Positions 12,742-62,693 of a DNA stretch of 64,000 nt are shown here, piece by piece. Where the stretch lies: assembly GCA_965226495.1 (NCBI GenBank), contig OZ245365.1:1664001-1728000 (forward strand), in the 5' to 3' direction. Each line of letters starts with the position of its first letter. Position 1 is the first letter of the stretch. Source of the DNA: Candidatus Marinacidobacterales bacterium. Lineage in GTDB: Bacteria; Acidobacteriota; Vicinamibacteria; Marinacidobacterales; DATDRI01. Under the pieces are notes generated by a model that was given only the letters and a program-made list of their open reading frames with translations, did not search any database and had not been told where the DNA came from. The position numbers were made by a program, and so were the translations under genes.

Positions 12742-15267
12742 TCACCGAAAGTACACGGTGGGCCCGGGCGTGCCGTAAGTGCGTGCGCGGACGTGCAAGT
12801 GCCGGTTGAAGAGTTCCGTATCGAGATCCAAGTACTGGGTTTGTCGCCAAATACGTAGCTTCATATCGTGAACCCGTCGGCGAAACGCCCGGATCGCGTC
12901 GTATTGCTCCATCGACCGCACGCGCCAGCCATCGAGCCCGACAATCACGTCGCCGCCACGCAGGCCGGCTTTGTCGATCGCCGAGCTCTTCCCGTCGAGC
13001 AGTAGTCCGCCTCGAGGAGGCTCGGCGTCATGCTCCTCCGGGAGCGGCTCGAGACCCGTCGGGAAGACTTTTCCTGCCAGTCGCTCGAGTTTCTCTCGAT
13101 AGGCTTCACGACCTTCCCCATGGGTCATCCGATAGTAGAACCCGAGAAGTGGATAGGACGCCGGGTCCTCGGAGTCGTATCGCTCTCCGTTTTTCCTGTA
13201 CCAGGATTCCGCTTGGGCGGGTCGACCCAGGCGTTCGTACAAACTCGCCAGCGTCGTCAACCCGCCCGAGCAGTAGGTCTCGGCGACCATCTCCGCGGTC
13301 TTCATCGCCTCGGTTCGGCGACCTTGGTCGAAGTAATAATGGACCAGCCATTCGCAGCTGTTGCACAGATAGATGCGGTCGGGGGCTTCGCGTACGGCCT
13401 GTTCGAACGCGGCTGCAGCCTCGTCATCCCGCCCGGCCCGCACGAGTGACCATCCGAAGCCGATGCACTCGTTAGCATCGAGAGTGCACATTTTCTCGTA
13501 AAGCAGTGTCTCGTCTTCGGCCTCGTCGCCGAGGGCATCGCGCATCCAATAGAGAGCGCCGAGATCGAAATCGACCCGGTCACCGAGCTCTCCCTCGATC
13601 TGTTCGGCCGTCGGTTTCTTCCGCTCCAGCCGTTGCATCAACACGTAGAGGAAGGAACGGTGACGCGGCGCAACCTCGCGGAGAGCCTCGAGGGCCTGGT
13701 CTTGCTTGACGGACGGTCCGATGGCACGCAAACGCGCCCACGTATCGAAAACCGTCGTCACTAGGATGCCTCGGGAAAACCAGGCATCCCCTCGCGGCAT
13801 GCTCAACCTTCTCACCATGAGGGAAGTGGTGTCGGCCATGTACTGCCAGTTGTTGGCGTTGACGAGCTCGGGCTTTCTGCGCGTGAGATTAATCGTGCCG
13901 TCCATCCCCTCGATGTCTTCGACATAGGCACCGGTCCGACGGGTTCGGTGTACCCGCACGATGGGGTAAAGCGTTAGTCCTTCGAAGAGGTTATCCGCCT
14001 GCGCCCCGTGACCCTCCGCCCAGTCCGGGCGCCCCACCACACTTCGCATATGCTCGTCCGAGAGCGCCAACAGCCCACAGATGTGCCGTTGGAAGAAAGC
14101 GGCCCAGGTACCCCATCCTATGACCCGCGGTCCCTCCGAGGTGACGCAGCGTTCCGCCGGCTCGTTCAATCCATCGATGATGGCGCCGGGTGTCATGGGG
14201 CGCTCACGCGAAAGAGTCCACACCTCCTCGAACTCTGCGAGCTCCCGTTCCAGTTGAGAGCTGATGAAGCGGTTATCGCTGGCTGCACCGCTGTACCTCC
14301 AGCTCACGATCCGGCTCCAATCCGCCTGGCCCCCGCGAACCTCGGCGCCCATTCTCTTGGCAGCCGTGGTGGAGTCGACGGTGACGGTCAATGCGCGAAA
14401 CCGTTTCATGCTCTCGAATAGAGTGTCCGGCTCGTCGGTGGACCGCCGCCAATCGTACGTGGAATGCATGTACAGCCCATTGACCCATGATGCGGATACT
14501 GGCGTTGCGTTTTCGGAGAGCCGACCGAGCGCTGCAAGCGCTTCCTCCTGGCGACCGAGAATCACGAGGTGCGTCGCCTCAGCGAACTCTCCGGTGAGGC
14601 TGCGGGGCACCGGACCCGACAGAGCGCGCGCCATGGCGAGATGGGCCGTGATCCGGCAACGCACCTGCCGCAAGTCCCCGAACCGATACGAAGCCTCCCG
14701 TAGTGCGAAGGCACCGAGAAGAAGAGCCGCCTCTTCGTGGGCCTCGGCATCTAGCATGTTCGACGCGAGTCGCGACGAGACCCGCTGGTTCTCGGTCTCG
14801 ATGACGCTCGGAAGGGGCTCGAGGAGTCTTTCGAGCAGCGAGGAGTCCTCGACACTCGTGGAGGCTGAAGGGCTCTGTGCATTCGATCCCAGTAGGGCGC
14901 GGGCCAGCTCCGCGTAGTTCTGCGGATTCCAGAGAGAGCCCTCGAGGACAAGCTCTCGCGAAACCGAATCAGAGCTGCCTCGAACAGAAACCTCAACGCG
15001 CACGAGCGGGAGCGGTTCGTTGTCTACCGCGACACGCTCGACAGAAATCGAGACATCATTAATATTGCCCTGCTGCGAATACGCAGCCATCTCGACGATG
15101 TCGCGCACGATCTCATCGAGGAGCCAATCCTCTTCGGTCGCAAAACGAGACTTGAGCGAGGCGGGCGTACCCCCCATGCGCGAGCCGACGCGATCGTAGA
15201 CGTAGAATCCGAGCACGCCCCCGAGGACGAGCAAGAGGATTATCCCGACGAGACTTCTCTTCGTCAT
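12742..15267 (-). CDS. membrane-anchored helical-repeat (TPR-like) protein with C-terminal PDZ-like domain
   Basis: N-terminal TM; TPR-like helices; SAIDKAGLRGGDVIVGLDG PDZ motif. Confidence 0.65.
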   Translation of the reverse strand: MTKRSLVGIILLLVLGGVLGFYVYDRVGSRMGGTPASLKSRFATEEDWLLDEIVRDIVEMAAYSQQGNINDVSISVERVAVDNEPLPLVRVEVSVRGSSDSVSRELVLEGSLWNPQNYAELARALLGSNAQSPSASTSVEDSSLLERLLEPLPSVIETENQRVSSRLASNMLDAEAHEEAALLLGAFALREASYRFGDLRQVRCRITAHLAMARALSGPVPRSLTGEFAEATHLVILGRQEEALAALGRLSENATPVSASWVNGLYMHSTYDWRRSTDEPDTLFESMKRFRALTVTVDSTTAAKRMGAEVRGGQADWSRIVSWRYSGAASDNRFISSQLERELAEFEEVWTLSRERPMTPGAIIDGLNEPAERCVTSEGPRVIGWGTWAAFFQRHICGLLALSDEHMRSVVGRPDWAEGHGAQADNLFEGLTLYPIVRVHRTRRTGAYVEDIEGMDGTINLTRRKPELVNANNWQYMADTTSLMVRRLSMPRGDAWFSRGILVTTVFDTWARLRAIGPSVKQDQALEALREVAPRHRSFLYVLMQRLERKKPTAEQIEGELGDRVDFDLGALYWMRDALGDEAEDETLLYEKMCTLDANECIGFGWSLVRAGRDDEAAAAFEQAVREAPDRIYLCNSCEWLVHYYFDQGRRTEAMKTAEMVAETYCSGGLTTLASLYERLGRPAQAESWYRKNGERYDSEDPASYPLLGFYYRMTHGEGREAYREKLERLAGKVFPTGLEPLPEEHDAEPPRGGLLLDGKSSAIDKAGLRGGDVIVGLDGWRVRSMEQYDAIRAFRRRVHDMKLRIWRQTQYLDLDTELFNRHLHVRARTYGTPGPTVYFR

Positions 15268-15279
15268 GTCGGGGTCTCT

Positions 15280-16080
15280 CTACTTGAGGGCGATCTCTTT
15301 TCGCTGGAAGACGAGAGTACCCGCGATCACCGCAGCGAGCGCATAGAGTGTGTTCTCCAAGAACACTGCACCGTACAGGCCGTAGTTCGGTGAAAGGATC
15401 CCGGTGACCAGGCCTCCTTCCAAGAGACCATCCGGAATACGAGCGGGTGCCAGGAAATACCCAGCGTCAGCGATGATCTTCCAGGCCCCGCGAGAATACT
15501 CCGTGAATACCCAGGTAAAGCTTCGTAGGTAAAACAAGACGAGTGCAAAACCGCCCGCCAACACGGGATTGAAAACGCTCGAAAGGGCCATGCAGACGGC
15601 GCTCACGATAGCTAGTCGCAGCAAGAGCTCCGCGATACCGATTGCGAAGACGGTCGAGGGATAAAGCTCCCAGTACCAGCACAGCCCGATCCCCACCAAG
15701 GTGCCTGCGCCGAGGAACATGGCTAGGAACCCGAGGGTCCCCAGCCACTTCGCCAAGAAGAAGTGCCACCGCTCGACCGGTCGACTGAGCACGGAGACGA
15801 TGGTGCGGTTCTTGATTTCCGAAGAAATCGCGACCGAGCCCAGGAATACGGCGAGCACTGTGCTCCAGAATTCCATGATTCCGAAGAGCCCGAGGATCAA
15901 CTGACTGTGAAACTGAGCGCGTGCCTCGATCTCCCCGGGCGCGTCCGCCATGTCCATATAAACCATGCCGTAAAGGGCCTGGGCCCCGAAGAGCAAAGCG
16001 ACGAAGAGAAGGATGTAGGTGATCTTGCGGCGGAGCGCCTCTTCCCACGTATTGAGGGCGATCGTCCAAACGCTAGCCAT
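15280..16080 (-). CDS. ABC-2 type transporter permease
   Basis: ISSEIKNRTIVSVLSRPVERWHFFLAKWLG, six TM segments, FQRKEI end. Confidence 0.88.
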   Translation of the reverse strand: MASVWTIALNTWEEALRRKITYILLFVALLFGAQALYGMVYMDMADAPGEIEARAQFHSQLILGLFGIMEFWSTVLAVFLGSVAISSEIKNRTIVSVLSRPVERWHFFLAKWLGTLGFLAMFLGAGTLVGIGLCWYWELYPSTVFAIGIAELLLRLAIVSAVCMALSSVFNPVLAGGFALVLFYLRSFTWVFTEYSRGAWKIIADAGYFLAPARIPDGLLEGGLVTGILSPNYGLYGAVFLENTLYALAAVIAGTLVFQRKEIALK

Positions 16081-17005
16081 CGGAGGAACCTCCTACGTGC
16101 TTCATGTAAAGATCCTCGAGCGATTGGGAGCGCCGTTTCAACGTGCCCACTTCCAACCCCGCTTCGGTCATCTGCTGCAAGAGCCTCCGCTTCTCGTCCA
16201 ACGAACAAACAAACGTGGCTTTACCCGGTTGCCGGTTCACCCGATTGAATCCGGCAGCGACCAGGGAATCCGACGAGGCGTCTTCGCCCAGCACTTCGAC
16301 TTCCCACAGCTCTTGATCCCCGGTGAGCCGTTCGATGTCCTCCGCAAGAACGACCTCGCCATTGCGGATCATCACCACCCGATCGCAGGTCCTTTCAACG
16401 TCGGAGAGAATGTGACTACTCAAGAAAACGGTTCGTTCTTGTGCTTTTTCCTCCAAGATGATCTCGGCGACCAGCTTCCGGCCCTCGGGATCGAGCCCGG
16501 TGGTCGGCTCGTCTAGGACTAGGAACTCGGGCTCGTGCAAGAGCGCCTGCGCGAGCCCCAATCGCTGCATCATCCCTTTGGAGAACGTTCCGACCTTTCG
16601 GTCCGCCGCTTCCATAAGCCCCAACCGGGCGAGCTGTTGATCGATGCGAGTCGCCCGCTCGCCGTCCGGTATGCCCGAGAGCTTCGCGTAGAAGGCCAAC
16701 GAGCGCCGAGCGGTATGGAACGGGTAAGTATGGAAGATTTCGGATTGGAACCCGAGTCTCCCCCGGGCTGCCTTGGACCCCGCGGGCTCCCCGAAGACCG
16801 CAATACGGCCCTCATCCGGTTTCAGGAAACCGAGGATGGAAAGAATGGTTGTCGTCTTGCCGGCTCCGTTGGGCCCGACGAATGCCACCACCGAGCCTCG
16901 ATGCACTTGAAGCGAGAGCTCATTGACGGCGCGCACCACCGGTCTTCGAAAACCCGAACGGTAGCTCTTGGTGAGCCCCTCGATTTCCAGGACCGGAGAG
17001 CTCAA
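16073..17005 (-). CDS. ABC transporter ATP-binding protein
   Basis: Walker A GPNGAGKT, FSKGM signature, LDEPTTGLD. Confidence 0.95.
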   Translation of the reverse strand: MSSPVLEIEGLTKSYRSGFRRPVVRAVNELSLQVHRGSVVAFVGPNGAGKTTTILSILGFLKPDEGRIAVFGEPAGSKAARGRLGFQSEIFHTYPFHTARRSLAFYAKLSGIPDGERATRIDQQLARLGLMEAADRKVGTFSKGMMQRLGLAQALLHEPEFLVLDEPTTGLDPEGRKLVAEIILEEKAQERTVFLSSHILSDVERTCDRVVMIRNGEVVLAEDIERLTGDQELWEVEVLGEDASSDSLVAAGFNRVNRQPGKATFVCSLDEKRRLLQQMTEAGLEVGTLKRRSQSLEDLYMKHVGGSSDG

Positions 17006-17571
17006 TACTCGACCATCCCGGTCTCGAACTCTTCGTCCAGAAGCGATTCGACGCGATAGGCGAGATAGGGGTCGATGCCTTCGAGCACCGCGGTCACCAC
17101 CCCATCGGCGTTGAGGAGGATCGTAGTGGGGACGACGTGCACACGATGGCGCGCCGCAACGACACCGTCGGGGTCGAGGAGGACCGGAAACGACACCGGT
17201 CTTTCGTTAAGAAAATCCCGGATGGTATCTTCGGTGTCTCCCACGTTGACCGCGAGAATCTGGACCCCCTCGTCCTGATATTCCTCATAGAGTCTTTGAA
17301 GCTGCAGCAGCTCCATACGGCAGGGCGTAAACCAGGTTGCCCAGTAGTTGACGACGATGACCACATGATCGGAGACCTCTTTCGCAAGCGCGACCTCGCC
17401 GCCATCGAGCTCCGGCAGCGCGAAATCAGGAGGAGCCTCTCCACGAGGGAGGGAGTCTTGGAAGCCTTGAAGTGCTTCGACCTGCCTCACGTCGGTCTTT
17501 ACCTTGAAACTGAACGCAGCCACAGCGGCAAAGAAGACGAATACGAAGGCGCCGATCGCGTAAGGCTTCAT
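17002..17571 (-). CDS. TlpA/ResA-like thioredoxin with altered active site (FxxC)
   Basis: PDFALPELDG..NYWATWFTPCRMEL..VPTTILL; first Cys position is TTT. Confidence 0.8.
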   Translation of the reverse strand: MKPYAIGAFVFVFFAAVAAFSFKVKTDVRQVEALQGFQDSLPRGEAPPDFALPELDGGEVALAKEVSDHVVIVVNYWATWFTPCRMELLQLQRLYEEYQDEGVQILAVNVGDTEDTIRDFLNERPVSFPVLLDPDGVVAARHRVHVVPTTILLNADGVVTAVLEGIDPYLAYRVESLLDEEFETGMVEY

Positions 17572-17653
17572 GTGCTGGCCTCTGCTAAAGGGAAAACGGT
17601 GCTGTCGTCATCCTAGGGCAGGCGAATCGGCCTGTCAAAACACCGGGAAGAGA

Positions 17654-17710
17654 TGTGTTCTCAGTGGAAGCGGCTTGGTCGTCCGAAGTCTCTTCGACCT
17701 GACGATTTGA
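17654..17710 (+). pseudogene. intI: 3'-terminal remnant (about 18 codons) of an integron integrase
   Basis: Reads CVLSGSGLVVRSLFDLTI* versus [18 protein letters not shown] of the integrase ending at 61681. Confidence 0.8.
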
Positions 17711-17934
17711 AAAGCCGACGCCCGCGCCCTACAATCGCCCAAAGGGGTCTCGCGGCGATATCCACATATCCAGACCCACCGGACGCGGAGTATCCCGGAC
17801 GGGAGACAACGCATCATGTCCAACACGAATGGGGTCAGCTACATGAACAACGACACCCACGCTGCATTATCCAATACACGAGCCGGCTTGGATGTGCTAT
17901 CGAATAATCCAGATCTAGATACTTACTGTTGGGC
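17711..17934 (+). mobile_element. attI platform copy A (spacer plus attI; crossover G/TT at 17928-17930)
   Basis: About 198/220 nt identical (hand count) to 61682-61901; homology stops exactly at GTT; core GTTGGGC complements R'' GCCCAAC of the next attC. Confidence 0.85.
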
Positions 17935-17952
17935 GGATTCGTGAGGTCTTAG

Positions 17953-18504
17953 GTGGTAGGCCCTGACAGCCGTGTTGCGATTTGGAACACCTACTTCAAG
18001 CTCGCCTGGGAGCAGGCCAAGGCGGTGCACGAGTTATCGACCGGTCACTCAAGTAAGGACACCTTCAGGCCCTGGGGTGGCACGCTTCCCGATGGCGAGC
18101 CGGAAGTATTGGCGGTGGTCGTGTTCTGTACCCTAGCGATCGAAGCGCGCGCCAATCACCTGATCGAGGAACTAATCGAGGCTGGTAAGATATCCAAAGA
18201 TACTGGGCGGGCAGCGCGTTGGTTGCCACCAAGAGAGAGGTGGTTCCTCCTCCCAGCGCTCGCGGGTTCCAGCGCTCAACTTGACTCGACCGCTGGTCCT
18301 CACCAAGCTGTGGCTCAAGTTTGCGAGTTACGTAACGATTTCCTGCACGTCAACTACGCAGCTCTTTCTGCAAAGCTGCCGACCGCCACCACAGTGCTGA
18401 GCTACTTTCAACGTGTCGTGGAGGCGTTTGAGGATATGAACGTGTTGCTGGGACGTATCGAGTCGCCGCGCGCGGAAGTTCTTCGGCTCGGGCGGTTCAA
18501 ATGA
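17953..18504 (+). CDS. gene cassette A1: helical protein with HEPN-like RxxxxH motif
   Basis: Between attI and attC; AIEARAN...LRNDFLH. Confidence 0.7.
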   Translation: MVGPDSRVAIWNTYFKLAWEQAKAVHELSTGHSSKDTFRPWGGTLPDGEPEVLAVVVFCTLAIEARANHLIEELIEAGKISKDTGRAARWLPPRERWFLLPALAGSSAQLDSTAGPHQAVAQVCELRNDFLHVNYAALSAKLPTATTVLSYFQRVVEAFEDMNVLLGRIESPRAEVLRLGRFK

Positions 18505-18511
18505 GGCCACC

Positions 18512-18646
18512 GCCCAACACGCCGTTGGAGCGGACGATCGGCGCCAGCGCTGCTTGGCTGGTGCGCTTCGGCAGGTATTGTCGTAGCATGTTATTAAAGG
18601 AAGGGCTAAGGGTGGCACCGCTCGCCGCTCAACGGCCCTGTTGAGT
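18512..18646 (+). mobile_element. attC site (cassette A1)
   Basis: R'' GCCCAAC, L'' GTTGGAGC (extra G), L' GCTCAAC, R' GTT at 18640; arms nearly identical to the attC at 62470-62565. Confidence 0.9.
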
Positions 18647-18761
18647 CTGTAGGAAAACCTCAAAGGGGGTGAATAGATGACCCTATTTCGTCACGAGAGG
18701 CCGCCTTCGAGTGCGAGATCAGGCCATCTAGAGCAGGGCTTCAGGGTTTTCCTACAGACTC
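18643..18761. mobile_element. 119-bp MITE with perfect 17-bp terminal inverted repeats and a GTT target duplication
   Basis: GTT|GAGTCTGTAGGAAAACC...GGTTTTCCTACAGACTC|GTTAGGC. Confidence 0.88.
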
Positions 18762-18848
18762 GTTAGGCCGACGGAAATCTGCAGACTTGTTGTTTGGCGA
18801 GGACGGTCGTTGCGCAAGCTGTCGCTCTAGCTCTAATCTTAGGGAACG

Positions 18849-19780
18849 ATGACAACATACAAGCGCCAGCACACCGTTCCGGTTAGCTATCAGCGCAGCT
18901 TCTCGACCGATCGTGCAAAGAGGAATCGCAGCTCGAAGGTCTACAAGTTCTCCAAGGCTGATGCCTGTTGGACCGGACCGGTTCGTGCGGAGAAGCAGTG
19001 CTGGGCCTCCGACTTCTACTCAGCGGCTGATCGCGAAAAGAGCGAGAAGGAGCTCCAAGTCATCGAAGACGACTACGCGAAGTGGAGCGAGAAGGTCTAC
19101 CAGCAAGGCTTCGCTTCTCTTACCGAAGAAGAGGTCTACAACCTTGCGCTCACCGTGCTGGCGCTCTTCGCACGCAACCCGGTTCACCGACACACGGGTG
19201 TCCTCCCGGAGGAGCGGAATCGCGTAGCAGCCCGATACGAGGCAGTCAGCGTTCTGGTAGCCGCAGAGTACGCGGAAGCAATTAAGGAGGGTGTTTCCGA
19301 GGAAATCCGCCGCGAGCGTCAGGACGAGATTCAGCGTCGCTGGTCACTGCATGAAGTTCGCGCCGCTGCCGGCAGCTCCTTCATCTACACGGACTCACCG
19401 GTGGTCCCCTGTTTTATTGGCACGACCGGCGCTCGCACTCTTGCGTTTATCATGCCGTTCGACGCAGAAGCGGTGTGGATTTACGCGGACGAGGGCGTTC
19501 ATGTCGGCGCCACCACAGCGACCGAGGATGATGTCGATAAGATCAACAGCTCTTGGCCGCCCACGCGATCGACGTAGTGTTTGCGAGCAGCGAAATCGAT
19601 CCAGGTCCAATCCGAGCGGGATTTGCTTCGCCCTTCGACATCAAGAGCGAGATCAACACGGAGGGATGGAGTTTTGAACCCTATCGCCTCACTGACATCC
19701 CTTGGCTTTCTGTTGCGCCAGGTACACCGGGCTCACCTCAGTCGAGAGTTCGCGTTAAGGCGCGTTCTAAGCTTGTGTGA
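18849..19780 (+). pseudogene. gene cassette A2: DUF4238-like protein, apparent 1-nt frameshift near 19550
   Basis: RQHTVPVSYQRSF and FIYTDSPV motifs; frame continues as LAAHAIDVVFASSE (19553-19780). Confidence 0.65.
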
Positions 19781-19796
19781 CGCGGAAGTCTGGCGC

Positions 19797-20811
19797 TGTA
19801 GTGTCCTGAGTCTTTGGTTACACACTGAGTCCTGTTTTCTGTCTAAGGCGTTCATACGGGGTCTGGCCGTCTAAGCCTCCATGAGGTCGATGGTAGTTAT
19901 AGTACTTCTCCCACTCGCTCAGTTTTGCATTGAATAGGTGAATGTCGTCGCTGACCCCGTCCTTGTCTAGAAGCTGGTAAAACTCTTGGTCGTCGGTGCG
20001 ATGAGAGCGTTCGACCTTGCCGTTCAATCGAGGGGTCCGGGGCGTGATGTATACGTGGGATATGTCTTTGTCCTGAAGGTGCCAGTGAAACCTCGACTGG
20101 AATTCAGCACCGTTGTCGGTTTGTATGACGTGAATTCTGAAGGGTAATCGGTGGATGACTTCATCGATGAACTGAATGGCCGTCTTTTGACTGCAGGCAT
20201 CGAATATCTTCAAGACCCGTATCCTTGTACAGTCGTCTACGGCCGTGAACTGATAGAGCCTTCTCCGGGTGCCTGGTATTCTCTCCAGGAACTTTACATC
20301 GACCTGCAGCCTATGGCCAGGCTGGCGTTTCTCGTACCGCTTCCAGCGCTTGGTGTGAGCGCGATGCTTCTGGTTTGCGGGCAATCGACTTAGGCCATTG
20401 CGTTCCAGGACTCGGTGAACCGTGGAGCCGGCGATTTTTATCTGATGATATCGATGCAGATAGGAAGCGATTCTCGCCGGCCCAAAGTGGTAGTTCTGCC
20501 GCAAGTAGAGAATCTTGCTGACCGTCTCTTTGGGAGTCTCGTGGGGGCAATTCTTGGGCCTTCTTGGTCTATCACAGAGGCTTGCTTCACCATGGGCCGC
20601 GTACCGAGAAAGCCATTTGTAGAAAGTCGTCCGCGAGATCCCGAAATATCTACAAGTTTTTGAGACATTGTGAGTTGTTTCGCCTGCGTGACGAATGACC
20701 TTCATCCGCCAATTTACCAGTCGCTGTCGTTCCGTCTTCTTCATAGTTGCACTGCCTCTCTGTAGCGCTTAAAAGAAGACTAGTGTGTCACCTATGTCCT
20801 TGGGTTTTACA
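19797..20811 (-). mobile_element. IS481-family insertion sequence (about 1015 bp)
   Basis: Imperfect TGT...ACA terminal IRs (TGTAGTGTCC..GGTTACACACT / TGTAAAACCC..GGTGACACACT) around a single transposase. Confidence 0.88.
19818..20744 (-). CDS. IS481-family DDE transposase
   Basis: HTH (CRYFGISRTTFYKW), rve core VDVK / TDNGAEF / NGKVERSHR, YNYHRPH. Confidence 0.92.
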   Translation of the reverse strand: MKKTERQRLVNWRMKVIRHAGETTHNVSKTCRYFGISRTTFYKWLSRYAAHGEASLCDRPRRPKNCPHETPKETVSKILYLRQNYHFGPARIASYLHRYHQIKIAGSTVHRVLERNGLSRLPANQKHRAHTKRWKRYEKRQPGHRLQVDVKFLERIPGTRRRLYQFTAVDDCTRIRVLKIFDACSQKTAIQFIDEVIHRLPFRIHVIQTDNGAEFQSRFHWHLQDKDISHVYITPRTPRLNGKVERSHRTDDQEFYQLLDKDGVSDDIHLFNAKLSEWEKYYNYHRPHGGLDGQTPYERLRQKTGLSV

Positions 20812-20818
20812 CAGGGCC

Positions 20819-20920
20819 GTCTAACGACTACATGCAGCAGACGGCCGGGTTTATGGAATCAGCAGTTCGCTTCGCGGTCATGCTTGGTGCTCGGGCCGCA
20901 GCTGATGCGCGCTGCTCGCC
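20819..20920 (+). mobile_element. attC site with mutated core (R' GCTCGCC instead of GTTRRRY)
   Basis: R'' GTCTAAC, L'' CATGCAGC, L' GCTGATG, 6-nt spacer, then GCT. Confidence 0.7.
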
Positions 20921-20951
20921 GGCTTAGGTCTTAGACACCGAGGAGACGATT

Positions 20952-21464
20952 GTGGACCATGGGCGCACGTTGAGAGTTCAGCGACGATGTTCTTTGGATT
21001 GGGACGATCTTCCAGGAGACGAAGGCGCTCGTTACTGCGATCGGTGTAAAACAGTCGTCCACGATCTTGACGCAATGTCTGTCTCAGAGGTTCAGGTCCT
21101 TTTGAAGGAGCATCCGGACGGTTTCTGCGGAACGTTCGTGAGGCCTCGAGGCGAAGGTTTCGTCGTACCCGGTTCGTCGGGTCGCCGATTGGCCTCAGTC
21201 CCCAAGGGAGGAATGGCAGCAGTCGTCCTAGCGTCTGTGCTGTCAGGTTGCTCGGATGAGACCAAAGAGTTGCAAGCGCCAGCCCAGATTGTTGCACCTG
21301 ATTCACTGCCGGCCAGCGGAGCTGGGCAGGACGCCAGCGAACCGGGATCAGGTTCTCAAGATGAGGTGCGGCGACGCTCGTCACGGCCGGTCGGGTGGTC
21401 GGAGGAAGAATGGAAGAATAAAATGGAGTTGCTTCGGTCTCTTGGGTACGTGGCACCGGAGTGA
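20952..21464 (+). CDS. cassette A3: hypothetical protein with N-terminal Cys motif (C-x3-W...CxxC...FCG)
   Basis: CSLDWDDL..RYCDRCKTVVHDL..FCG; C-terminal LRSLGYV; start codon uncertain. Confidence 0.65.
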   Translation: MDHGRTLRVQRRCSLDWDDLPGDEGARYCDRCKTVVHDLDAMSVSEVQVLLKEHPDGFCGTFVRPRGEGFVVPGSSGRRLASVPKGGMAAVVLASVLSGCSDETKELQAPAQIVAPDSLPASGAGQDASEPGSGSQDEVRRRSSRPVGWSEEEWKNKMELLRSLGYVAPE

Positions 21465-21472
21465 GTCGGCTT

Positions 21473-21510
21473 GCCGGCTAATTACGGTTGAACGGACGCA
21501 AAGGCTAGCG
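21473..21510 (+). mobile_element. degenerate attC remnant
   Basis: GCCGGCTAAT-tacggttgaacggacg resembles an R''/L'' arm; GCCGGC mirrors the cassette start at 20918-20923. Confidence 0.4.
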
Positions 21511-21517
21511 TGATTTT

Positions 21518-21841
21518 TTGAAGGAGGAACAGGAGTTCGAAGGCGTCTACGTGGCGCATTGGGAGGTATCGCGGTTCATTGTGCAAGCTGGGAAAGGCCT
21601 ATTTGGGTTATGGCAGCGGATCGAAAAATGGTGCCCGTCGTTCCCAGAAACGTTCGTCTTGCCCGAGAAAGCAGGCGAAGTCGTGGAACCCCGAGGCCCG
21701 GCGCGGTACTTCCGGATGCGTGTTCGTGGCCGACTCGGTCCAAAGGGGTCATTTGGCCACAGGGGAATATGCAATCGAGAACTCGTTATCTCCGAGGTCC
21801 TCGACTGTGAGGAAACATCCACGCCCGGGAAGACGTGGTGA
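21518..21841 (+). CDS. cassette A4: hypothetical protein
   Basis: 107-aa ORF between attC remnants; GPKGSFGHRG motif. Confidence 0.6.
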   Translation: MKEEQEFEGVYVAHWEVSRFIVQAGKGLFGLWQRIEKWCPSFPETFVLPEKAGEVVEPRGPARYFRMRVRGRLGPKGSFGHRGICNRELVISEVLDCEETSTPGKTW

Positions 21842-21865
21842 CGTCGGTCTTGTGGCAATCGAGCC

Positions 21866-21922
21866 GTCCAACAACACGCTGAAGCTGAGTCGCGGCGCAT
21901 GGCTGAGGTTTAACGGCTAGAC
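21866..21922 (+). mobile_element. eroded attC (left arm intact, core GCTAGAC)
   Basis: R'' GTCCAAC, N5, L'' GCTGAAGC; GCTAGAC directly precedes ATG 21923. Confidence 0.5.
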
Positions 21923-22246
21923 ATGAGTTTCCGGGAAATTTTGAGTAGGCCACCCGCTTGGGTGGTTATCTCGGTGGCGGCCTTTCTTGGCACGAGTGCC
22001 CATTGGTTGCGAGACTTCGAACGGATCGACTCGTGTCTAGACTCGGGTCACGTTTACAACTACGTGAACGAGGTTTGCGACACGGAGGGACTGACGTACC
22101 CGGTCATCCCATACGGGGAGCGGCACCCCAAAATCATTTCACTAGGTATGGCGGCCGGCCTGTTGGGCGTTGTCGGGGCGGCCATCGCTAGCATCGGCGC
22201 CCGGCGGTTTTCCGACGCCCTCGTTGGGCAACGGCATCGGAGATGA
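21923..22246 (+). CDS. small two-TM hypothetical protein
   Basis: TM, IDSCLDSG..YNY...C, TM. Confidence 0.6.
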   Translation: MSFREILSRPPAWVVISVAAFLGTSAHWLRDFERIDSCLDSGHVYNYVNEVCDTEGLTYPVIPYGERHPKIISLGMAAGLLGVVGAAIASIGARRFSDALVGQRHRR

Positions 22247-23085
22247 AATTAGCAACACGGATCGTTGCATTCCTAATGCTGGCGTCGCTCGGACTGGGCT
22301 CGTGGGCGTTCTGGCTCGAGCCTTCCAGTCTTCGCAACGAAGACCACGAGATCGGTCTCCCGGCATGGCCGGAACAATGTGATGATTTTCGCATCGCCAT
22401 CCTCGCCGACCTCCACGTCGGGTCTCCCTACAACGGGCTCGTTAAGCTTGCTGAGATCGTAGAGCTGACTCAGCGCGCGGACCCGGATCTCGTTCTCCTT
22501 TTGGGGGACTTCGTCATTCACGGGGTCATTGGGGGCAGCTTCGTCTCGCCGGAAGACTCGGCTCGCGAATTGGCGCGGTTGGCGGCTCCGGCTGGCGTGT
22601 TCGCGGTCCTTGGCAATCATGACTGGTGGTTCGATGCGGCGCGGGTTCGTAATGCGCTTGAAGCCGAGGGAATTCCTGTTCTCGAAGACGCGTCTCGAGA
22701 GATCGGCGTAGCTGGCTGTCGTTTCTGGCTCGCCGGCGTCGGCGATCTATGGGAAGGGGCCCACGACATCGGTGCGGCGCTGTCCGGGATTCCCGCGGGC
22801 GATCCGACGATCCTTTTCACTCACAACCCCGACCTCTTCCCGGACGTGCCATCCAGAGTTTCGCTCACGGTCGCGGGGCATACCCATGGCGGGCAGGTCT
22901 ACATCCCCGGAATTGGACGGCCGATCGTCCCTTCCAAGTTTGGGGAGCGTTTTGCGAGCGGCCACATCGTCGAAAACAGTCGGCACCTCTTTGTCAGCTC
23001 GGGGGTCGGCACGAGTATTCTTCCGGTTAGGTTTCTGGTGCCGCCCGAGGTCTCGGTCGTTAGACTCCGCGCAGGCGGCAGCTAG
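22243..23085 (+). CDS. calcineurin-like metallophosphoesterase (YkuE-like)
   Basis: DLH, GD, GNHD, HNPD and GHTHGGQ motifs. Confidence 0.92.
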   Translation: MKLATRIVAFLMLASLGLGSWAFWLEPSSLRNEDHEIGLPAWPEQCDDFRIAILADLHVGSPYNGLVKLAEIVELTQRADPDLVLLLGDFVIHGVIGGSFVSPEDSARELARLAAPAGVFAVLGNHDWWFDAARVRNALEAEGIPVLEDASREIGVAGCRFWLAGVGDLWEGAHDIGAALSGIPAGDPTILFTHNPDLFPDVPSRVSLTVAGHTHGGQVYIPGIGRPIVPSKFGERFASGHIVENSRHLFVSSGVGTSILPVRFLVPPEVSVVRLRAGGS

Positions 23086-23117
23086 CCGATGGCAGACAGA
23101 GGGCGGAGACCACAATC

Positions 23118-23417
23118 ATGAAGGCGTTGTTGCGCATCGCGACTGCGTTCACTCCGTTGGCCCTGGCACCGGTATTCGGGTATCTCATTGCCGAAGGCTT
23201 CGTAAACCTTGGAGGAGGGGAGAAGGATCTGCTCTGGATGTTCCCGTGGCTTCTCTGGTCATTGGTGTTCGCGGTGAGCGCCTTGGTTCTCTGGCGTCGA
23301 GGTTGGTCGCTCCGGCAGGCGCTCGTTCGCTCGGCGATGGTGGGCTTTTCGGTAATTCTTCTTGCGGCGGGGCTTCTGGCTATTTTCAGCCAGTTGGGAG
23401 TTGCGGGCCGATTTTGA
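23118..23417 (+). CDS. small membrane protein
   Basis: Three hydrophobic segments, NLGGGEKD loop; GGAG RBS. Confidence 0.65.
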   Translation: MKALLRIATAFTPLALAPVFGYLIAEGFVNLGGGEKDLLWMFPWLLWSLVFAVSALVLWRRGWSLRQALVRSAMVGFSVILLAAGLLAIFSQLGVAGRF

Positions 23418-23549
23418 GCCCATGATAAACGCGGAGGGACGGCATACTCAATAGAGCACTAGAGCACTATCTGCGAGAATACGAAGAATCGTTGAACCCC
23501 TGACCCGTTGGTGAAGACGGCTAGGCAAGCAAGGGGGCGGTACGTTCAG

Positions 23550-24035
23550 ATGACTCACGAGAATCAGCGGAAGCCAGTGCCGCCTGTTTTCGCAGGCCGC
23601 GTGGATCATGGATGTGGCTGTCCGCTGGGATTCATACTAGGGATGGGTTGCGTATTGTTGGGAATGCGTCACTACGGATGGCCGCCTTGGGTGGCCTTGC
23701 TTCTTTTTCTACCTGCGGGCGCTTTGAGCGGGGCGATTGTCTCGTTGGTGTTCGACGGGCTCGGCTACCCAATTCGGTATGTGATGTACCGGAACAAGTT
23801 GTCCTCGTTCCAACGCAGCCAGGAAAAGAAGAAGCGGCAATCGGGTTTTTCTCCCATCGAACTTCCAGTCGCGTTGGTGTTGTTCGGTCTGGTGGCGGCG
23901 GGCCTTCTCTATATCTTCACGAACGGATTCCCTTGGTACTACTACCTATTTGTCGTGGTCGGGCCAATCCTTTTGATCTTTGGCTCGCTTTTCGTCATGG
24001 GAATCATCGCTGCGCTTTTTCGGAGTGAAGACTAG
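23550..24035 (+). CDS. hypothetical membrane protein
   Basis: Four hydrophobic segments; internal pilin-leader-like GFSPIEL. Confidence 0.5.
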   Translation: MTHENQRKPVPPVFAGRVDHGCGCPLGFILGMGCVLLGMRHYGWPPWVALLLFLPAGALSGAIVSLVFDGLGYPIRYVMYRNKLSSFQRSQEKKKRQSGFSPIELPVALVLFGLVAAGLLYIFTNGFPWYYYLFVVVGPILLIFGSLFVMGIIAALFRSED

Positions 24036-24040
24036 AGTCG

Positions 24041-25450
24041 ATGACCGTTCGCTGGGCTCATGCACGCGCCGCCATTCGGCCGATCGGGGAGAGGCTCGGC
24101 CTAGAAGAGAAGCTCGCGCCCTACTGGGATCGCACCTGGACCGGGGAGTTAGAGAATCGACCCACGCTTTACCTCGATGACGTATCCGAAATTCCGTTCT
24201 TAGATGAGATTTCAGGAGTTGAAGAATACCAGCACCGTGCTCGGGCACGGGCCGGGGAAGGCGACCTATTTGCGACCGTCAGTCAGCCGGTCGCCGGCTA
24301 TGAGGAGTATTGCCGTGAGCGGCTTCAGCTTGGCGCTCCAGAGGGGATCGTGGCCGATGTCGTGACGAGTCCCATCGCCGTGACCCGGGCGTGCAGCGAG
24401 GGTGCGGCCTTTCAACGTCTCGTCGAATCTGCTCGTTCGGCCGGGCTTGTCATCCATCCGTACATGAGCATCGAGCCGGTCTGGGAATTAGCCGGCCGCA
24501 TTCGAGATGAAACGGGAAATGCCGTGACCGTTATCGGGCCGCCCCCACCGATAACAGAACTGGCTAATGACAAGGCGCTCTTCAGCGAAGTCGTCGTCGC
24601 CGTGCTCGGCGAGCAGTGGTTAGTCGATACGCGCATGACGACGAACCCCACCAAGCTTGCGAACCATCTCCTCGAACTCGCGGAAACTCATCGGCTCGTC
24701 GCTCTCAAACGTGCCCGGTGCGCTTCCGGAATGGGGAACTTGGTTTTGGAGGCGCGCGCCCTTACCGGGAGGAGCGCCTCCGCCGTGGAGAAGGACGTGC
24801 GTTCTTTCCTAGAGCGCACGCAATGGGATGGCGAGGAAACGGTGCTCGCAGTCGGTTGGGAACAAACGAACGTCACGCCCTCGACGCAGTTGTGGCTTCC
24901 GCCGGTTGGCGATGGCGCGCCGCAGCTAGATGGAATCTACGAACAAATTCTGGCACCCGGGACGAGTGTATTCATGGGCAGTCGGCCGTCGACCCTTTCG
25001 ACGGCGCTCAATCGCCGCATCGGGAATGCGTCGCTCGAGATCGCGACAGCCTTCCAAGACCTGGGGTATGTGGGAAGGTGCTCCTTCGATCTACTAGTTG
25101 TGGGTGATCCCGAGGGCGATTGCCGAGTGCGGTTTGTCGAGTGTAACGGCCGCTGGGGGGGCACGAGCATCCCCATGCACCTCGTGGACCGCCTGGTGGG
25201 GACTCCTCGGCCGCCGTACCGCGCGCAGGATTTCGTCCACTCGGATTTGGTCGGCAGCGCTTTCCAGGATGTCCTCGATCGCGTCGGCGACTCGCTCTAT
25301 GATGCGGAAACTCGTCGCGGCCGGTTTATCGTCTATAATGTGGGCCCGTTGGCCGGCTCGGGCAAAATCGACGTCATCGCCATCGGTGAAACGCCGCAAC
25401 AGGCGGAGAGTGCTTTGGAGGATGAGCTTCCGGAACTTCTCGGCTTTTGA
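24041..25450 (+). CDS. ATP-grasp fold ligase (pre-ATP-grasp / PGM1-like)
   Basis: ANDKALF, SGMGN, CSFDLL..FVECNGRWGG. Confidence 0.75.
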   Translation: MTVRWAHARAAIRPIGERLGLEEKLAPYWDRTWTGELENRPTLYLDDVSEIPFLDEISGVEEYQHRARARAGEGDLFATVSQPVAGYEEYCRERLQLGAPEGIVADVVTSPIAVTRACSEGAAFQRLVESARSAGLVIHPYMSIEPVWELAGRIRDETGNAVTVIGPPPPITELANDKALFSEVVVAVLGEQWLVDTRMTTNPTKLANHLLELAETHRLVALKRARCASGMGNLVLEARALTGRSASAVEKDVRSFLERTQWDGEETVLAVGWEQTNVTPSTQLWLPPVGDGAPQLDGIYEQILAPGTSVFMGSRPSTLSTALNRRIGNASLEIATAFQDLGYVGRCSFDLLVVGDPEGDCRVRFVECNGRWGGTSIPMHLVDRLVGTPRPPYRAQDFVHSDLVGSAFQDVLDRVGDSLYDAETRRGRFIVYNVGPLAGSGKIDVIAIGETPQQAESALEDELPELLGF

Positions 25451-25481
25451 GCTCGGCGGCGTTTGAAGGAGGAGCATCTTC

Positions 25482-26072
25482 GTGCGACACGAGAGTAGGT
25501 TTTCATACGTCATTTCAGTACTGGCAATTCTGATTTGTTCGGTAGCCGTAAACGCGACGGCAGAAGATCAGAGGGAGGAGTACAGCGGCTTCGTGATCAA
25601 TAAGAGCCGCAGCGCCATAAACAACTCCGCCACGGTTAGAATCGCCATCGAGCGGTGGTCGACCGATGAAGAGAGGTCCGCGCTAATCAATGCGCTGGTC
25701 GAGAACGGCCACGAAGGGTTCGTGAAAGTTCTACAGGGCCAAAAAGAAACAGGATTCGTGCGCTCACAAGCAGCGACCGACACCGTTGGCGGATTGCCGC
25801 GCATCGTCACGCGCTACGCGCGCAAGGTTACCGAGAACGGCACAACGACTATTACCTTGGTTACCGATCGACCGATGCGTGGCAAGGAAGATCCGGAGTA
25901 CAAGAAATACAACGTCTCCGCGCTTCGACTCGAGCTTAGCGAGGAAGGGAAGGGGACCGGTATCGTTTACGTGGCACTCAAGGTCGGTTATGACAAAGAG
26001 AAACAACGGCTACTCCTACAAAGTGCGACGATAGAGCCAGTCCATTTGACCAATGTGCATTTGAACAAGTAA
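25482..26072 (+). CDS. secreted hypothetical protein
   Basis: Signal peptide; IERWSTDEER..LVTDRP..GKGTG. Confidence 0.7.
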   Translation: MRHESRFSYVISVLAILICSVAVNATAEDQREEYSGFVINKSRSAINNSATVRIAIERWSTDEERSALINALVENGHEGFVKVLQGQKETGFVRSQAATDTVGGLPRIVTRYARKVTENGTTTITLVTDRPMRGKEDPEYKKYNVSALRLELSEEGKGTGIVYVALKVGYDKEKQRLLLQSATIEPVHLTNVHLNK

Positions 26073-26301
26073 CCGAGGTCGGGCTACTGTCGGTCCTCCT
26101 TACGCCTTCGAATTTAACCTAAGCGACTCATTTTACAGGGGTTTATTGTGTTCTTGTGGAATGGTGTCGCCACGGCTTACGGATTTTTTCCGTTTCCATC
26201 ACTGTTCTGCGCCCGACCGGTGCGGAACGCTGAACCGTAAACGCTTGTTAAATAAGATCGTTACGGGATAGGTCTTTTTTGGGTGGCTGCGTGTTTTCAT
26301 T

Positions 26302-26317
26302 TGGCACATTTTTCGCT
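26302..26317 (+). promoter_or_regulatory. candidate sigma-54 (-24/-12) promoter
   Basis: TGGCAC-N5-TCGCT with correct GG/GC spacing; AT-rich upstream region. Confidence 0.5.
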
Positions 26318-26554
26318 ATACCCAACTTGGGGTTCGCCTACATGTGCCGAGTAGTCGAAAACACCAAGTTCCGAGTCTGCCGGGGAGCGCCGACGGCGGG
26401 ATTCCTAGCCGGTTTTTCGCAAGACAACCTACCTACCTCATTGCCTGGGGCCTAGCTTCTCCATGAGTTCGTAGAGCGGCGAGAAGGGCGCATCGCCTCG
26501 AGTGGTTTCCACAACGATTTTCGTCGTGGTAGCCTTGCCGGTCGAGCAACAACC

Positions 26555-27013
26555 ATGGCAGAACGCAGTCACCGCCAGGAGACGATCCTCGAGCTCATCG
26601 GGCGGAAACCCGTGCGTACCCAACACGAGTTCCTCAAAGAACTACGCCGACACGGCGTGGAATTGACTCAAGCAACTCTCTCCCGCGAGCTCAAGTCGCT
26701 CGGGGTAGCGAAGGGACCGGACGGACGGGGAGGCTATCGCTATGTTGCGGGTGCCCCCGGTTCGGGGCTTTCCGGGCAGGGGCCGGTGCCCGCGGTCGCC
26801 GCGTTCGTCAGAAGCGTCGAGCGAAGCAACAACCTTCTAGTCGTTAAGACGCCCCCCGGGAACGCCCAGGGTGTGGCGCGCGGGATCGATCAAGCGGAGT
26901 GGTCCGAGGTCTTGGGGACCATCGCCGGCGACGACACCATCCTCCTTATCTGCCGGAACCAGCCACAGGCGACGCGCGTGGAGCGGCGGCTGAAGCTCAT
27001 CGCGCGTTCGTAG
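26555..27013 (+). CDS. argR: arginine repressor
   Basis: TQATLSRELK wHTH, VVKTPPGNA, GTIAGDDT. Confidence 0.95.
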   Translation: MAERSHRQETILELIGRKPVRTQHEFLKELRRHGVELTQATLSRELKSLGVAKGPDGRGGYRYVAGAPGSGLSGQGPVPAVAAFVRSVERSNNLLVVKTPPGNAQGVARGIDQAEWSEVLGTIAGDDTILLICRNQPQATRVERRLKLIARS

Positions 27014-27045
27014 ACTCCCCACCATCATCTTTTTTACTAATTTAC

Positions 27046-27101
27046 TTGACCCAGGCCCGCCCGGTGTAGATAATTATACTATGGAGATGCATAATTATGC
27101 A
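27046..27101 (+). promoter_or_regulatory. sigma-70 promoter overlapped by tandem ARG boxes
   Basis: TTGACC-N17-GATAAT; TAGATAATTATACT (27067) and perfect TGCATAATTATGCA (27088), 21 bp apart. Confidence 0.85.
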
Positions 27102-29164: not shown

Positions 29165-29171
29165 GTGCCTC

Positions 29172-29270
29172 AATGCGCGCTCACTCCTCGTTCGCGCGCT
29201 CGGCGCCTCGCTCCCCGCTCGGCGACCTGTCGTCGGCCCATGCGGGCCGGGCTCGCTCCGCTCGCGCAGG
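29172..29270. repeat. REP-like GC-rich intergenic repeat
   Basis: AATGC..CTCCTCG..GCCTCGCTC..CGCTCGGC motifs recur in reverse complement at 44190-44266. Confidence 0.45.
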
Positions 29271-29306
29271 GTGCAGTTTAGTCGTCAGCACCCTGCTAGG
29301 AAACCG

Positions 29307-60645: not shown

Positions 60646-60703
60646 TTTTTCCAGGGAGGGTTTCCCGCTCCTATTTCGTCACAGTAAGTAGGGGAGGGGC
60701 ACC

Positions 60704-61681
60704 ATCCAGATTCATTCTAAACCACCCAAGCTACTCGACCGGGTTCGGTCTGCCATTCGAGTCCGCCACTATAGCCGCCGTACCGAAAAGGCATATGTCG
60801 GGTGGATCAAGAGGTTCATCTTCTTTCACGACAAACGCCATCCCGACGAGATGGGAGAGCATGAGGTTACGGAATTCCTCTCGAGCCTCGCCACGAAGAA
60901 CAACCTCAGCCCCTCCAGCCAAAACCAGGCCTTGAGCGCTCTTCTTTTCTTGTACCAAAACGTGCTCGGTCGCGAGCTCGATTGGCTCGATCGCGTCGTG
61001 CGAGCTAAACGTCGCTTAAGGGTTCCATTAGTGCTCTCGCGTGACGAGGTTGATGCAGTCCTCCAACAGCTTCACGGGACGCCATGGCTCATGGCGTCGC
61101 TTCTCTATGGGGCCGGACTGCGAGTGCTGGAGTGTGCGCGCCTGCGGGTTCAGGATGTCGATTTCCGCCGGAATAAGATCTTGGTTCGAGACGGAAAGGG
61201 AAGAAAGGACCGAGTCACCGTTTTTCCTAATAAGGTGAAAGCACCCCTCGCCGCTCACATCGAGCGAGTCCGCCTCCAACACCGGAAGGACATTGAAGAA
61301 GAGGCCGGATACGTCGAGTTGCCCTACGCTCTCCGCCGGAAGTACCCCCGCGCGGCTCGTGACTGGCCCTGGCAATGGGTCTTCCCGGCCACGCGCTTCT
61401 ATCGGGACCCTCAAACAGGTGAGCGTCGCCGACACCATCTCCACGAGTCGGTTCTCCAAAGGGCCGTGCAAGGCGCGGTGCGCGCCTCGGGGATCTCCAA
61501 ACCGGCGAAGTGCCATACCCTCCGACACTCCTTCGCCACTCACCTGCTCGAATCCGGATACGACATCCGGACGATCCAGGAGCTCCTCGGGCACGCCGAC
61601 GTGAGCGTCACCATGATCTACACCCATGTCCTCAACCGAGGCAGCTTGGGTGTACGAAGTCCTCTCGACGCGACGATTTGA
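60704..61681 (+). CDS. intI: integron integrase (tyrosine recombinase); start apparently ATC/ATT
   Basis: [23 protein letters not shown]; [14 protein letters not shown]; GLR, GKG, integron-specific [30 protein letters not shown]. Confidence 0.95.
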
Positions 61682-61905
61682 AAAGACGACGCCCGCGACA
61701 TACAATCGCCAAACGGAGCCTCGCGGCGATATCCACATATCCAGACCCACCGGACGCGGCATATCCCGGACGGGAGACAACGCATCATGTCCAACACGAA
61801 TGGGGTCAGCCACATGAACAAACACACCCACGCTGCGCTATCCAATACACAGGCCGGGTAGCGTGTGCTATCGAATAACCGAGATCTAGATACTTACTGT
61901 TAGAT
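61682..61905 (+). mobile_element. attI platform copy B (crossover G/TT at 61899-61901), downstream of intI
   Basis: Homology with copy A ends at GTT; core GTTAGAT complements R'' ATCTAAC of the next attC. Confidence 0.85.
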
Positions 61906-61911
61906 GGACAT

Positions 61912-62463
61912 ATGTCAGAACTTGAACGGGAACGAGAGCGACCCGAATTCACTGAGGCACAGGAGCTCTCTGGTTTTCGTGAGCGATTGGGCGAGGCGAT
62001 GGCCTGGTGTTCCTCTCGCGAACCTAGCTCGGACGCCCTAAGGGTTTTCCGGTCGCCAGAATTGGCTCCCGACCCTTTTGCTGTAAATGGATGGGGAGCC
62101 GTGTGGTCCGTCGCAGAAAAGCGCCGGGCGAAGTTGCCTAAAGGCAAGCGACGCCCAATCGGCGGTTTGGCGGGAGGACGGCTGGTTGCCTACATGCCCG
62201 AGGTCAACTTGTGCGATGGGGCCGCCGAGTATTCATCCGAGGGCTATTTTGATGTCGACAATATTCCGCCGTGGGACACGTGGGTTTGGTATGCCTGCGG
62301 AAGTAGCATCTTGCCGTCCCACCTCGTGGCTTGGGTCCCGCCTCAGTTCATCGATGTAGCGCAGGCTGGTCTTGAGGTTAATCCGGAGCAGTGTATTCGT
62401 TGGTTTGACGAAATGAAAACTAGCTTTGCGGAGTCCCTTCGTAGAAACGGAGTATTGAAGTGA
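61912..62463 (+). CDS. gene cassette B1: hypothetical protein
   Basis: Bounded by attI and attC; DGAAE..S.GYFD.DNIPPWDTW motif. Confidence 0.8.
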   Translation: MSELERERERPEFTEAQELSGFRERLGEAMAWCSSREPSSDALRVFRSPELAPDPFAVNGWGAVWSVAEKRRAKLPKGKRRPIGGLAGGRLVAYMPEVNLCDGAAEYSSEGYFDVDNIPPWDTWVWYACGSSILPSHLVAWVPPQFIDVAQAGLEVNPEQCIRWFDEMKTSFAESLRRNGVLK

Positions 62464-62469
62464 GGAGCC

Positions 62470-62565
62470 ATCTAACGCGCCGTTGCAGCGGACGATCGGC
62501 GCCGGCATTTGTTGGATAACCAATATGGGGATGGCACCGTTCGCCGCTGAACGGCCCTGTTAGGC
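62470..62565 (+). mobile_element. intact attC site
   Basis: R'' ATCTAAC, L'' GTTGCAGC, L' GCTGAAC, R' GTTAGGC. Confidence 0.92.
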
Positions 62566-62693
62566 GACCACTTTCGGAAACAATGGCGCGTCCTCTCGTA
62601 CTACCTCAATCACGTCGTCGACCGAGGCCAGTCGGCCGATTGACTCTTCAAACGTATGGCGTAGTTTCTGCGCGTTTTTAAGGAGGGATTGCA

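Follow-up and report, generated by a model that had tools for sequence, protein, structure and literature searches.

Clusters of attC sites lacking an integron integrase (CALINs), which by the definition of Cury et al. (2016, PMC4889954) hold at least two such sites, are among the closest described systems to the locus reported here. There, CALINs are described as able to arise by loss of the integrase gene intI in one of several integrons; the attachment site attI is described as unknown for most integrons and not searchable, and the cassette promoter (Pc) as unable to drive a CALIN that was split off by rearrangement. A 2025 preprint (bioRxiv 10.1101/2025.06.18.660453) states that CALINs can be mobilised or used in trans. 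Both ideas that underlie the present study, the use of CALINs in trans and their origin by intI loss, are already published. We analyzed a 64,000-nucleotide (nt) stretch of a Candidatus Marinacidobacterales genome (contig OZ245365.1, positions 1,664,001 to 1,728,000 of the forward strand), hereafter the window, in which a cassette array beginning at 17654 (array A) has no intI nearby and the integrase, IntI, is encoded elsewhere in the replicon. As far as the published descriptions go, array A is CALIN-like in these respects; it differs in that it keeps an attI and a Pc-like promoter, together referred to here as the platform, which can be aligned to the copy linked to intI. We file locus A as a CALIN, or as an integron that lost intI, in the form of a variant with a conserved attI platform; with one attC of 86.8 bits and a second of 18.9 bits that carries GCT, it is a borderline case under the two-site minimum.

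Sedentary chromosomal integrons with an inactivated intI, such as those of Xanthomonas, resemble the loci of this genome, so far as the same preprint (10.1101/2025.06.18.660453) covers them, in their chromosomal position, their lineage-specific attC family, the decay of the integrase by deletion or frameshift and the presence of insertion sequence (IS) elements. In the account given there, a single integron's own intI decays in place, whereas the present genome has one intact-looking intI and three deleted ones, and the platforms are conserved. A limited literature search, which is not proof of absence, returned no paper on conserved attI/Pc platforms heading integrase-less chromosomal arrays. 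Complex class 1 integrons of the Salmonella genomic island 1 (SGI1) type also contain a second attI1 with a truncated intI1 and its own cassette, which a neighbouring intact integrase serves. Their copies arose by recent duplication on mobile elements and are nearly identical. In the genome studied here, divergence among the copies is 10-22%, they are scattered across a 6.3-Mb chromosome, their attI is of an unrelated type, and the cassettes, as at the intI-linked locus (locus B), follow intI on the same strand.

Outside a few clinical integron classes, attI sites are essentially unannotated, so integrase-less arrays are usually treated as promoter-less, site-less debris. In this genome the attI-plus-promoter module can be defined by alignment, and it was kept after integrase loss three times here and once in another genus. 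Environmental attI sites can thus be sought by comparing the heads of CALINs with the ~230 nt next to intI. With four promoter-plus-docking-site modules and one integrase gene, one recombinase may serve several capture sites. The genome offers a testable system for one integrase feeding several expressed capture sites and, if this were true, integron capacity and CALIN function would have to be counted differently.

A second platform without its integrase

According to the original prediction, 17654-17930 aligns without gaps to 61625-61901, and this match was recovered by MAFFT alignment, by an ungapped profile, by a repeat search (17656-17937 against 61627-61908, 86%) and by blastn (86.9% over 275 nt). 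An exact recount reproduced the hand counts of about 16 differences in the 57-nt intI tail and about 22 in the 220-nt spacer. The tail (17654..17710, + strand) has 16/57 differences and is 71.9% identical to 61625-61681, and the spacer (17711-17930) has 22/220 differences and is 90.0% identical to 61682-61901. The proposal that the platform is conserved better than the adjoining intI stub was thus confirmed, as the contrast is significant (Fisher exact p=0.00099). The 57 nt flanking the repeat on either side are 28.1% and 29.8% identical, which corresponds to chance.

The tail of copy A, which ends in a TGA equivalent to the stop codon of intI, translates as CVLSGSGLVVRSLFDLTI and still reads as a degraded IntI C-terminus. 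The 16 changes affect first, second and third codon positions alike (6, 5 and 5, respectively), so the tail appears to be the decaying 3' stub of a deleted intI. No further intI homology was found upstream of 17654 (28% identity; local alignment no better than shuffles). Homology between the two copies ends at the GTT of the crossover, located at 17928-17930 in copy A and at 61899-61901 in copy B, and different cassettes follow each copy, blastn between the arrays detecting attC and IS similarity only; both points agree with what had been claimed from inspection. These results support the conclusion that copy A represents an integrase-less attI platform, probably the remnant of a second integron.

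The intI gene of locus B (60704..61681, + strand) matches the integron integrase family TIGR02249 with 463.6 bits (cut-off 265) over model positions 1-314 of 315, and its translation contains, by eye, what we take to be the catalytic motifs. It is the only full-length integron integrase gene that tblastn detected in the genome. The closest named relatives of its product are encoded in metagenome-assembled genomes labelled Candidatus Eisenbacteria (71-72% identity). With the IntI family signature and an attC array showing R''/L''...L'/R' pairing, locus B has the composition of a complete integron; at locus A, only the 57-nt stub adjoins the array. The only other intI piece in the genome is a frameshifted, 5'-truncated remnant at genome position 4093687-4094029 (minus strand), which covers residues ~210-325 at 58-69% identity and is followed by neither a platform nor an attC.

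Four platforms and their cassette junctions

The original prediction had called for a count of platform copies with and without intI. The genome holds four, one with intI alongside and three without. Platform B (genome 1725671-1725905) is the copy that adjoins intI, platform A (genome 1681656-1681930) has the 57-nt stub only, and platforms C (genome 5743491-5743726) and D (genome 3260582-3260828) have no adjacent intI; tblastn of the genome gave no IntI match near A, C or D. In C and D the homology starts ~8-12 nt before the stop-codon position. A longer intI stub upstream of these two platforms was considered and rejected, since the alignments there were comparable to those of shuffles (p=0.2-0.95 for C and p=0.08-0.47 for D; local and end-free). 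Pairwise identity is 90.2% between A and B, 84.6% between C and D, and 77-80% for the other pairs. Each platform heads a short array on the same strand, with two attC sites in each of the orphan arrays A, C and D. In blastn comparisons between the arrays, no cassette was common to any of the four, so the contents of each array were set independently.

The whole module is ~225 nt long. At its start lies a Pc-like sigma-70 promoter, TTGAAA-N17-TACAAT, predicted in copy A at 17707..17735 (+ strand) with 10/12 consensus matches, whose -35 box overlaps the TGA of the stub or, in copy B, the intI stop codon. The promoter-like site is kept in 4/4 copies, with the form TTGAAA-N18-TATAAT in C and D, and hexamers resembling -35 and -10 boxes were seen by eye at the intI stop in several relatives. 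Judging from the consensus match and this conservation, the site would act as a Pc and drive transcription into the first cassette. A leader of ~190 nt separates it from the attI core. In attI(A) (17711..17930, + strand), the crossover falls between the G at 17928 and the TT that begins at 17929; in attI(B) (61682..61901, + strand), which adjoins intI, it falls between 61899 and 61900. No consistent GTT or AAC was seen by eye at the left boundary of the platforms, and thus there is no sign of a site-specific origin there.

Among the four copies, 157/227 alignment columns are invariant. Conservation increases toward the crossover, where the invariant blocks are denser. The final 20 nt before the crossover, AGATCTAGATACTTACTGTT, are invariant in 4/4 copies, and further invariant blocks are ACACCCACGC, TATCCAATAC and TGTGCTATCGAAT. 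In addition, two CTATC(C/G)AATA repeats lie ~55 and ~25 nt before the crossover, in positions that presumably correspond to those of the extra integrase-binding repeats of attI1.

When a cassette inserts at the crossover, the six bases 3' of the G come from the cassette, and they have to be complementary to the R'' box of its attC. The junction heptamers complement the R'' box of the first attC at 7/7 positions for platforms A (GTTGGGC and GCCCAAC), B (GTTAGAT and ATCTAAC) and D (GTTCGGC and GCCGAAC), and at 6/7 positions for platform C. Among all 19 attC sites of the genome, the heptamer required by A, D or C occurs in 1 site each, and that required by B occurs in 2. This agreement between each junction and its own first attC indicates that IntI-type recombination has used all four platforms. 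The platforms therefore have the property expected of an attI site, a junction complemented by the R'' box of the first attC, and one of them, B, also adjoins intI. We predict that all are recombined by the cognate IntI, which would bind at the attI core.

Platform DNA was detected in 2/61 related genomes, namely this genome itself (G000) and G001, in which a 97-nt piece of 74% identity lies beside a transposase-like open reading frame (ORF). IntI was found in 19/61 of these genomes, and in the integrons of the relatives the cassettes likewise follow intI, with a CTATnnGAAyy...ACTGTT-like core ~230 nt past its stop codon. Six relatives (G005, G008, G060, G036, G030 and G002) were each searched with their own platform sequence. 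G005, which belongs to another genus of the same family, has a second, integrase-less copy of its own platform, and no IntI match was found in the 1.36 kb examined upstream of it. This satellite is homologous from ~25 nt ahead of the stop-codon position up to the crossover, and its junction GTTAGAC is complemented by an attC R'' box, GTCTAAC, located 0.65 kb downstream. The first ~90 nt are 63-83% identical and the last ~70 nt 70-92% identical, compared with 37% in the middle. The same search gave no second platform copy in G008, G060, G036 (83% complete) or G030.

Docking site, relic or expression module

The simplest history would start from several integrons, either paralogous or acquired separately, of which only one kept its intI; in the others, deletions that stopped just short of the platform promoter would have removed it. 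At locus A, the intI of a second integron would have been reduced to the 57-nt stub and the module after the stop codon retained, and the first cassettes of A, B, C and D would each have been inserted at the crossover by IntI-type recombination. The platform would then be a working module that transcribes the first cassettes, and the orphan platforms would stay competent docking sites, used in trans by the single IntI at 60.7 kb. We give this reading about an even chance. As to the proposal that platform A is loaded in trans by this IntI, the conserved platform without an integrase was confirmed, and its present-day use in trans is what we infer. The mechanism is plausible and better supported than simple decay. 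The contrast with the stub, the blocks shared among the copies and the pattern of the G005 satellite together point to constraint on the promoter-proximal part of the module, and most strongly on the attI core.

Several observations weigh against a functional docking site, and most of them would be expected if the orphan loci were the inert remains of dead integrons, with platforms that are merely young or have been homogenised by gene conversion, which we consider unlikely. The orphan arrays are short, are damaged by IS481, IS30 and IS256-like insertions and include weak attC sites (18.9-24 bits). The last attC of array A (~20914-20916) and that of array D (genome ~3266360) carry GCT instead of the GTT crossover, a change expected to block recombination at the distal end of each of these orphan arrays. 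The decayed intI fragment without platform or attC demonstrates that integrons do decay in this genome. The original prediction had also proposed to look for variation of the first cassette across strains. The sequence was matched by 24 runs (20 holders, 8 studies), with no RNA run among the holders. We compared metagenome contigs from 4 of the 24, and those of 3/4 runs, from 3 studies, span the junction of attI(A) and cassette A1 (17810-18512) with 0 differences; variation was thus not seen, and near-identical strains show no turnover at this junction. The syntenic locus of the sister species G002 has no platform; window 12957-23834 is replaced there by ~2.2 kb without a counterpart of that part of the window, and the platform is therefore dispensable at this position. 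At the start of the replacement lies an attC of 77.6 bits, the left half of which shares 92% identity with the attC of cassette A1, so that the A1 attC may be older than the split between the two species. When the A/B and C/D pairs were tested for variable sites in common, the result was marginal (odds ratio 2.95, p=0.055), and the comparison of stub and platform is based on a stub of 57 nt. Finally, no ATG, GTG or TTG occurs in intI from the upstream TAG to residue 50, that is, within its first 49 residues. The start region (60689-60713) contains a strong GGAGGGG, with ATC 4 nt downstream and ATT a further 6 nt on. In the gene of the closest relative (G006, 77% identity), the GGAGG-N-ATC arrangement recurs and a canonical start is missing too. 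Because GGAGGGG-N4-ATC is common to both genes, it suggests a rare, conserved ATC start that would limit integrase synthesis rather than a dead gene.

Other features of the platforms are at odds with inert relics. The 22 differences between A and B are scattered along the length of the platform without one long identical tract, and the blocks identical in A and B (the 20-nt core, a 13-nt block and a 10-nt block) are unchanged in C and D, the more distant copies. Neither conversion nor youth predicts the G005 satellite, with a middle so much more diverged than its ends, and the difference between stub and platform (p=0.001) also argues against this reading. A further possibility, which we regard as doubtful, is that promoter and leader are retained solely to express the downstream genes, the attI core being kept for a transcript or translational reason, with no exchange of cassettes. 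The promoter-like site kept in all copies and the static first cassette in the sampled strains would agree with it. So would an open frame seen by eye in A, C and D, which runs from a conserved ATG through the crossover to a stop near the start codon of the first cassette. The attI1 site carries a leader ORF, which this frame presumably recalls. A coding leader was nevertheless rejected, because the variable columns of the frame show no excess at the third position (11, 7 and 11 at positions 1, 2 and 3) and because a TAG, again noted by eye, interrupts the frame of copy B after 24 codons. Leader RNA structure found no support in RNAalifold analysis of the four copies (covariation term 0; 2/44 pairs compensated). 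Also against retention for expression, the best conservation lies in the 20 nt abutting the crossover and in the CTATC-type repeats 25 and 55 nt upstream, the region that in attI1 holds the integrase-binding sites. Moreover, the G005 satellite has a degraded -35 box (TCGAAG) and has kept its attI core.

As a less likely possibility, the arrangement could be a distributed integron, in which one IntI, tightly limited by its non-canonical start codon, would serve at least four promoter-bearing attI pads and two attC clusters without a platform, with selection maintaining the integrase-less pads as additional sites of capture and expression. On that assumption, the same layout in G005 would mark it as a trait of the lineage and not a chance product of decay. 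Lastly, the position of A and B as direct repeats separated by 43,971 nt, and the tyrosine recombinase gene next to one of them, would fit attL/attR-type repeats at the ends of an integrated 44-kb island mobilised by this recombinase. We consider such an island highly improbable and rejected it: the recombinase is a full-length integron integrase, attC-bearing cassettes follow both repeats, the repeat recurs at two other places at megabase distances, and in G002 the flanking genes have the same order and similar spacing (~38 kb compared with 36.7 kb) without platform A.

Cassettes, attC sites and insertion sequences

The attC sites were identified with a covariance model, R1, that we built from seven aligned attC sites of this genome and that is distinct from the model of IntegronFinder. 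The consensus fold has R''/R' and L''/L' pairing with 28 pairs, 10 of them with compensatory change, and two unpaired bases on the 5' arm (columns 19 and 26). A whole-genome search with R1 gave 19 matches that represent 18 attC sites, the first site of array B (B1) being matched on both strands, and a filter-free search of window 15000-30000 added a weak nineteenth, A2. Array B contains 8 sites at genome 1726467-1742808, with scores of 30-99 bits, and extends past the window. Two clusters, at 6018114-6020599 (minus strand, 3 sites) and 834572-835487 (minus strand, 2 sites), lack both intI and any recognisable platform. An IS30-family element of ~1.08 kb (HTH_38 and rve domains) flanks each of them; it has ~10 copies in total, one of which lies at genome 1736815-1737892. 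Several of these copies are located inside or directly beside attC sites of arrays B and C and of the two platform-less clusters.

Upstream of stub A are a divergent promoter-like site and the start of a thiol-disulfide oxidoreductase gene (17002-17571). The original prediction let array A extend over 17654..24035; cassettes headed by attI are indeed present, and the recognisable ones end at ~20923. Cassette A1 (17929..18640, + strand) begins with TTGGGC and contains an ORF at 17953-18504 (183 aa) with no Pfam or NCBIfam match. Its attC (18509..18649, + strand; 86.8 bits with R1) is among the 7 training sites. In the loop of this attC, blastn-type matches reveal a segment (18546..18599, + strand) that corresponds to the interior of the multicopy IS30-family element; 43 nt (18546-18588) are 100% identical to 6 copies, and 54 nt are 92.6% identical to 3 more. 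Exactly at the crossover of the same attC lies a 122-nt hairpin element (18641..18762, + strand), evident from the sequence by its 17-bp perfect arms, which has GTT on both sides and matches only itself in the genome. An ORF-less insert and a miniature inverted-repeat transposable element are both candidates for it, and without it the attC of A1 would end in the family consensus ...CCCTGTTAGGC. A match of the hairpin to a plant microRNA family in Rfam was dismissed as chance (25.2 bits compared with a gathering score of 100), and Rfam gave no RNA family in 17500-19000.

Cassette A2 (18763..20923, + strand) contains an ORF at 18849-19577 with a Pfam DUF4238 match (57 bits) and is interrupted by an IS481-family element at 19797-20811, whose limits were taken from other copies and whose transposase (19818-20744, minus strand) matches NF033577 with 286 bits. 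Its attC (20816-20923, + strand), in which GCT takes the place of the crossover GTT, is weak (18.9 bits, E=0.0017 in the 15 kb searched). The genes at 20952-24035 have no credible attC (best 9.4 bits) and, for most, no family, and are not presented as cassettes. In array D, the IS481-family element occupies genome 3263840-3266265 and is split by a 1.4-kb IS that is also present in array B. In both A and D it immediately precedes the R'' box (GTCTAAC) in the last attC, and because the insertion place is the same in the two arrays, the element may prefer attC sites. Cassette B1 (61900..62559, + strand), defined by the B junction described above, contains an ORF at 61912-62463 (183 aa, no family), and its attC at 62467-62568 (+ strand) scores 99.4 bits.

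In one X1 metagenome contig, position 17930 is joined to 18516; the shorter side of this joint has only 30 letters, and unknown letters lie between the two parts. We rejected its reading as an excision product. Metagenome joints inside 18542-18618, likewise not read as excision products, carry other loop sequences, and we take these and the X1 joint to represent the platforms and attC sites of other arrays.

The intI ortholog of G002 has 84% nucleotide identity and an internal TGA, and the sequence downstream of it is unrelated to the platform described here. This sequence (L024:10300-10860) has a second copy at G002:C1:1162609-1162813, 100% identical over 205 of 251 nt, and gives a weak match to the region after intI in G038, a member of another family. 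It was rejected as a satellite attI because it precedes a tyrosine-recombinase-like ORF and looks like a mobile insertion, which it probably is; the element may target the junction of intI and attI. Elsewhere in the window, a 145-nt direct repeat of 70% identity occurs at 5230-5374 and 6310-6454, its two copies 1080 nt apart.

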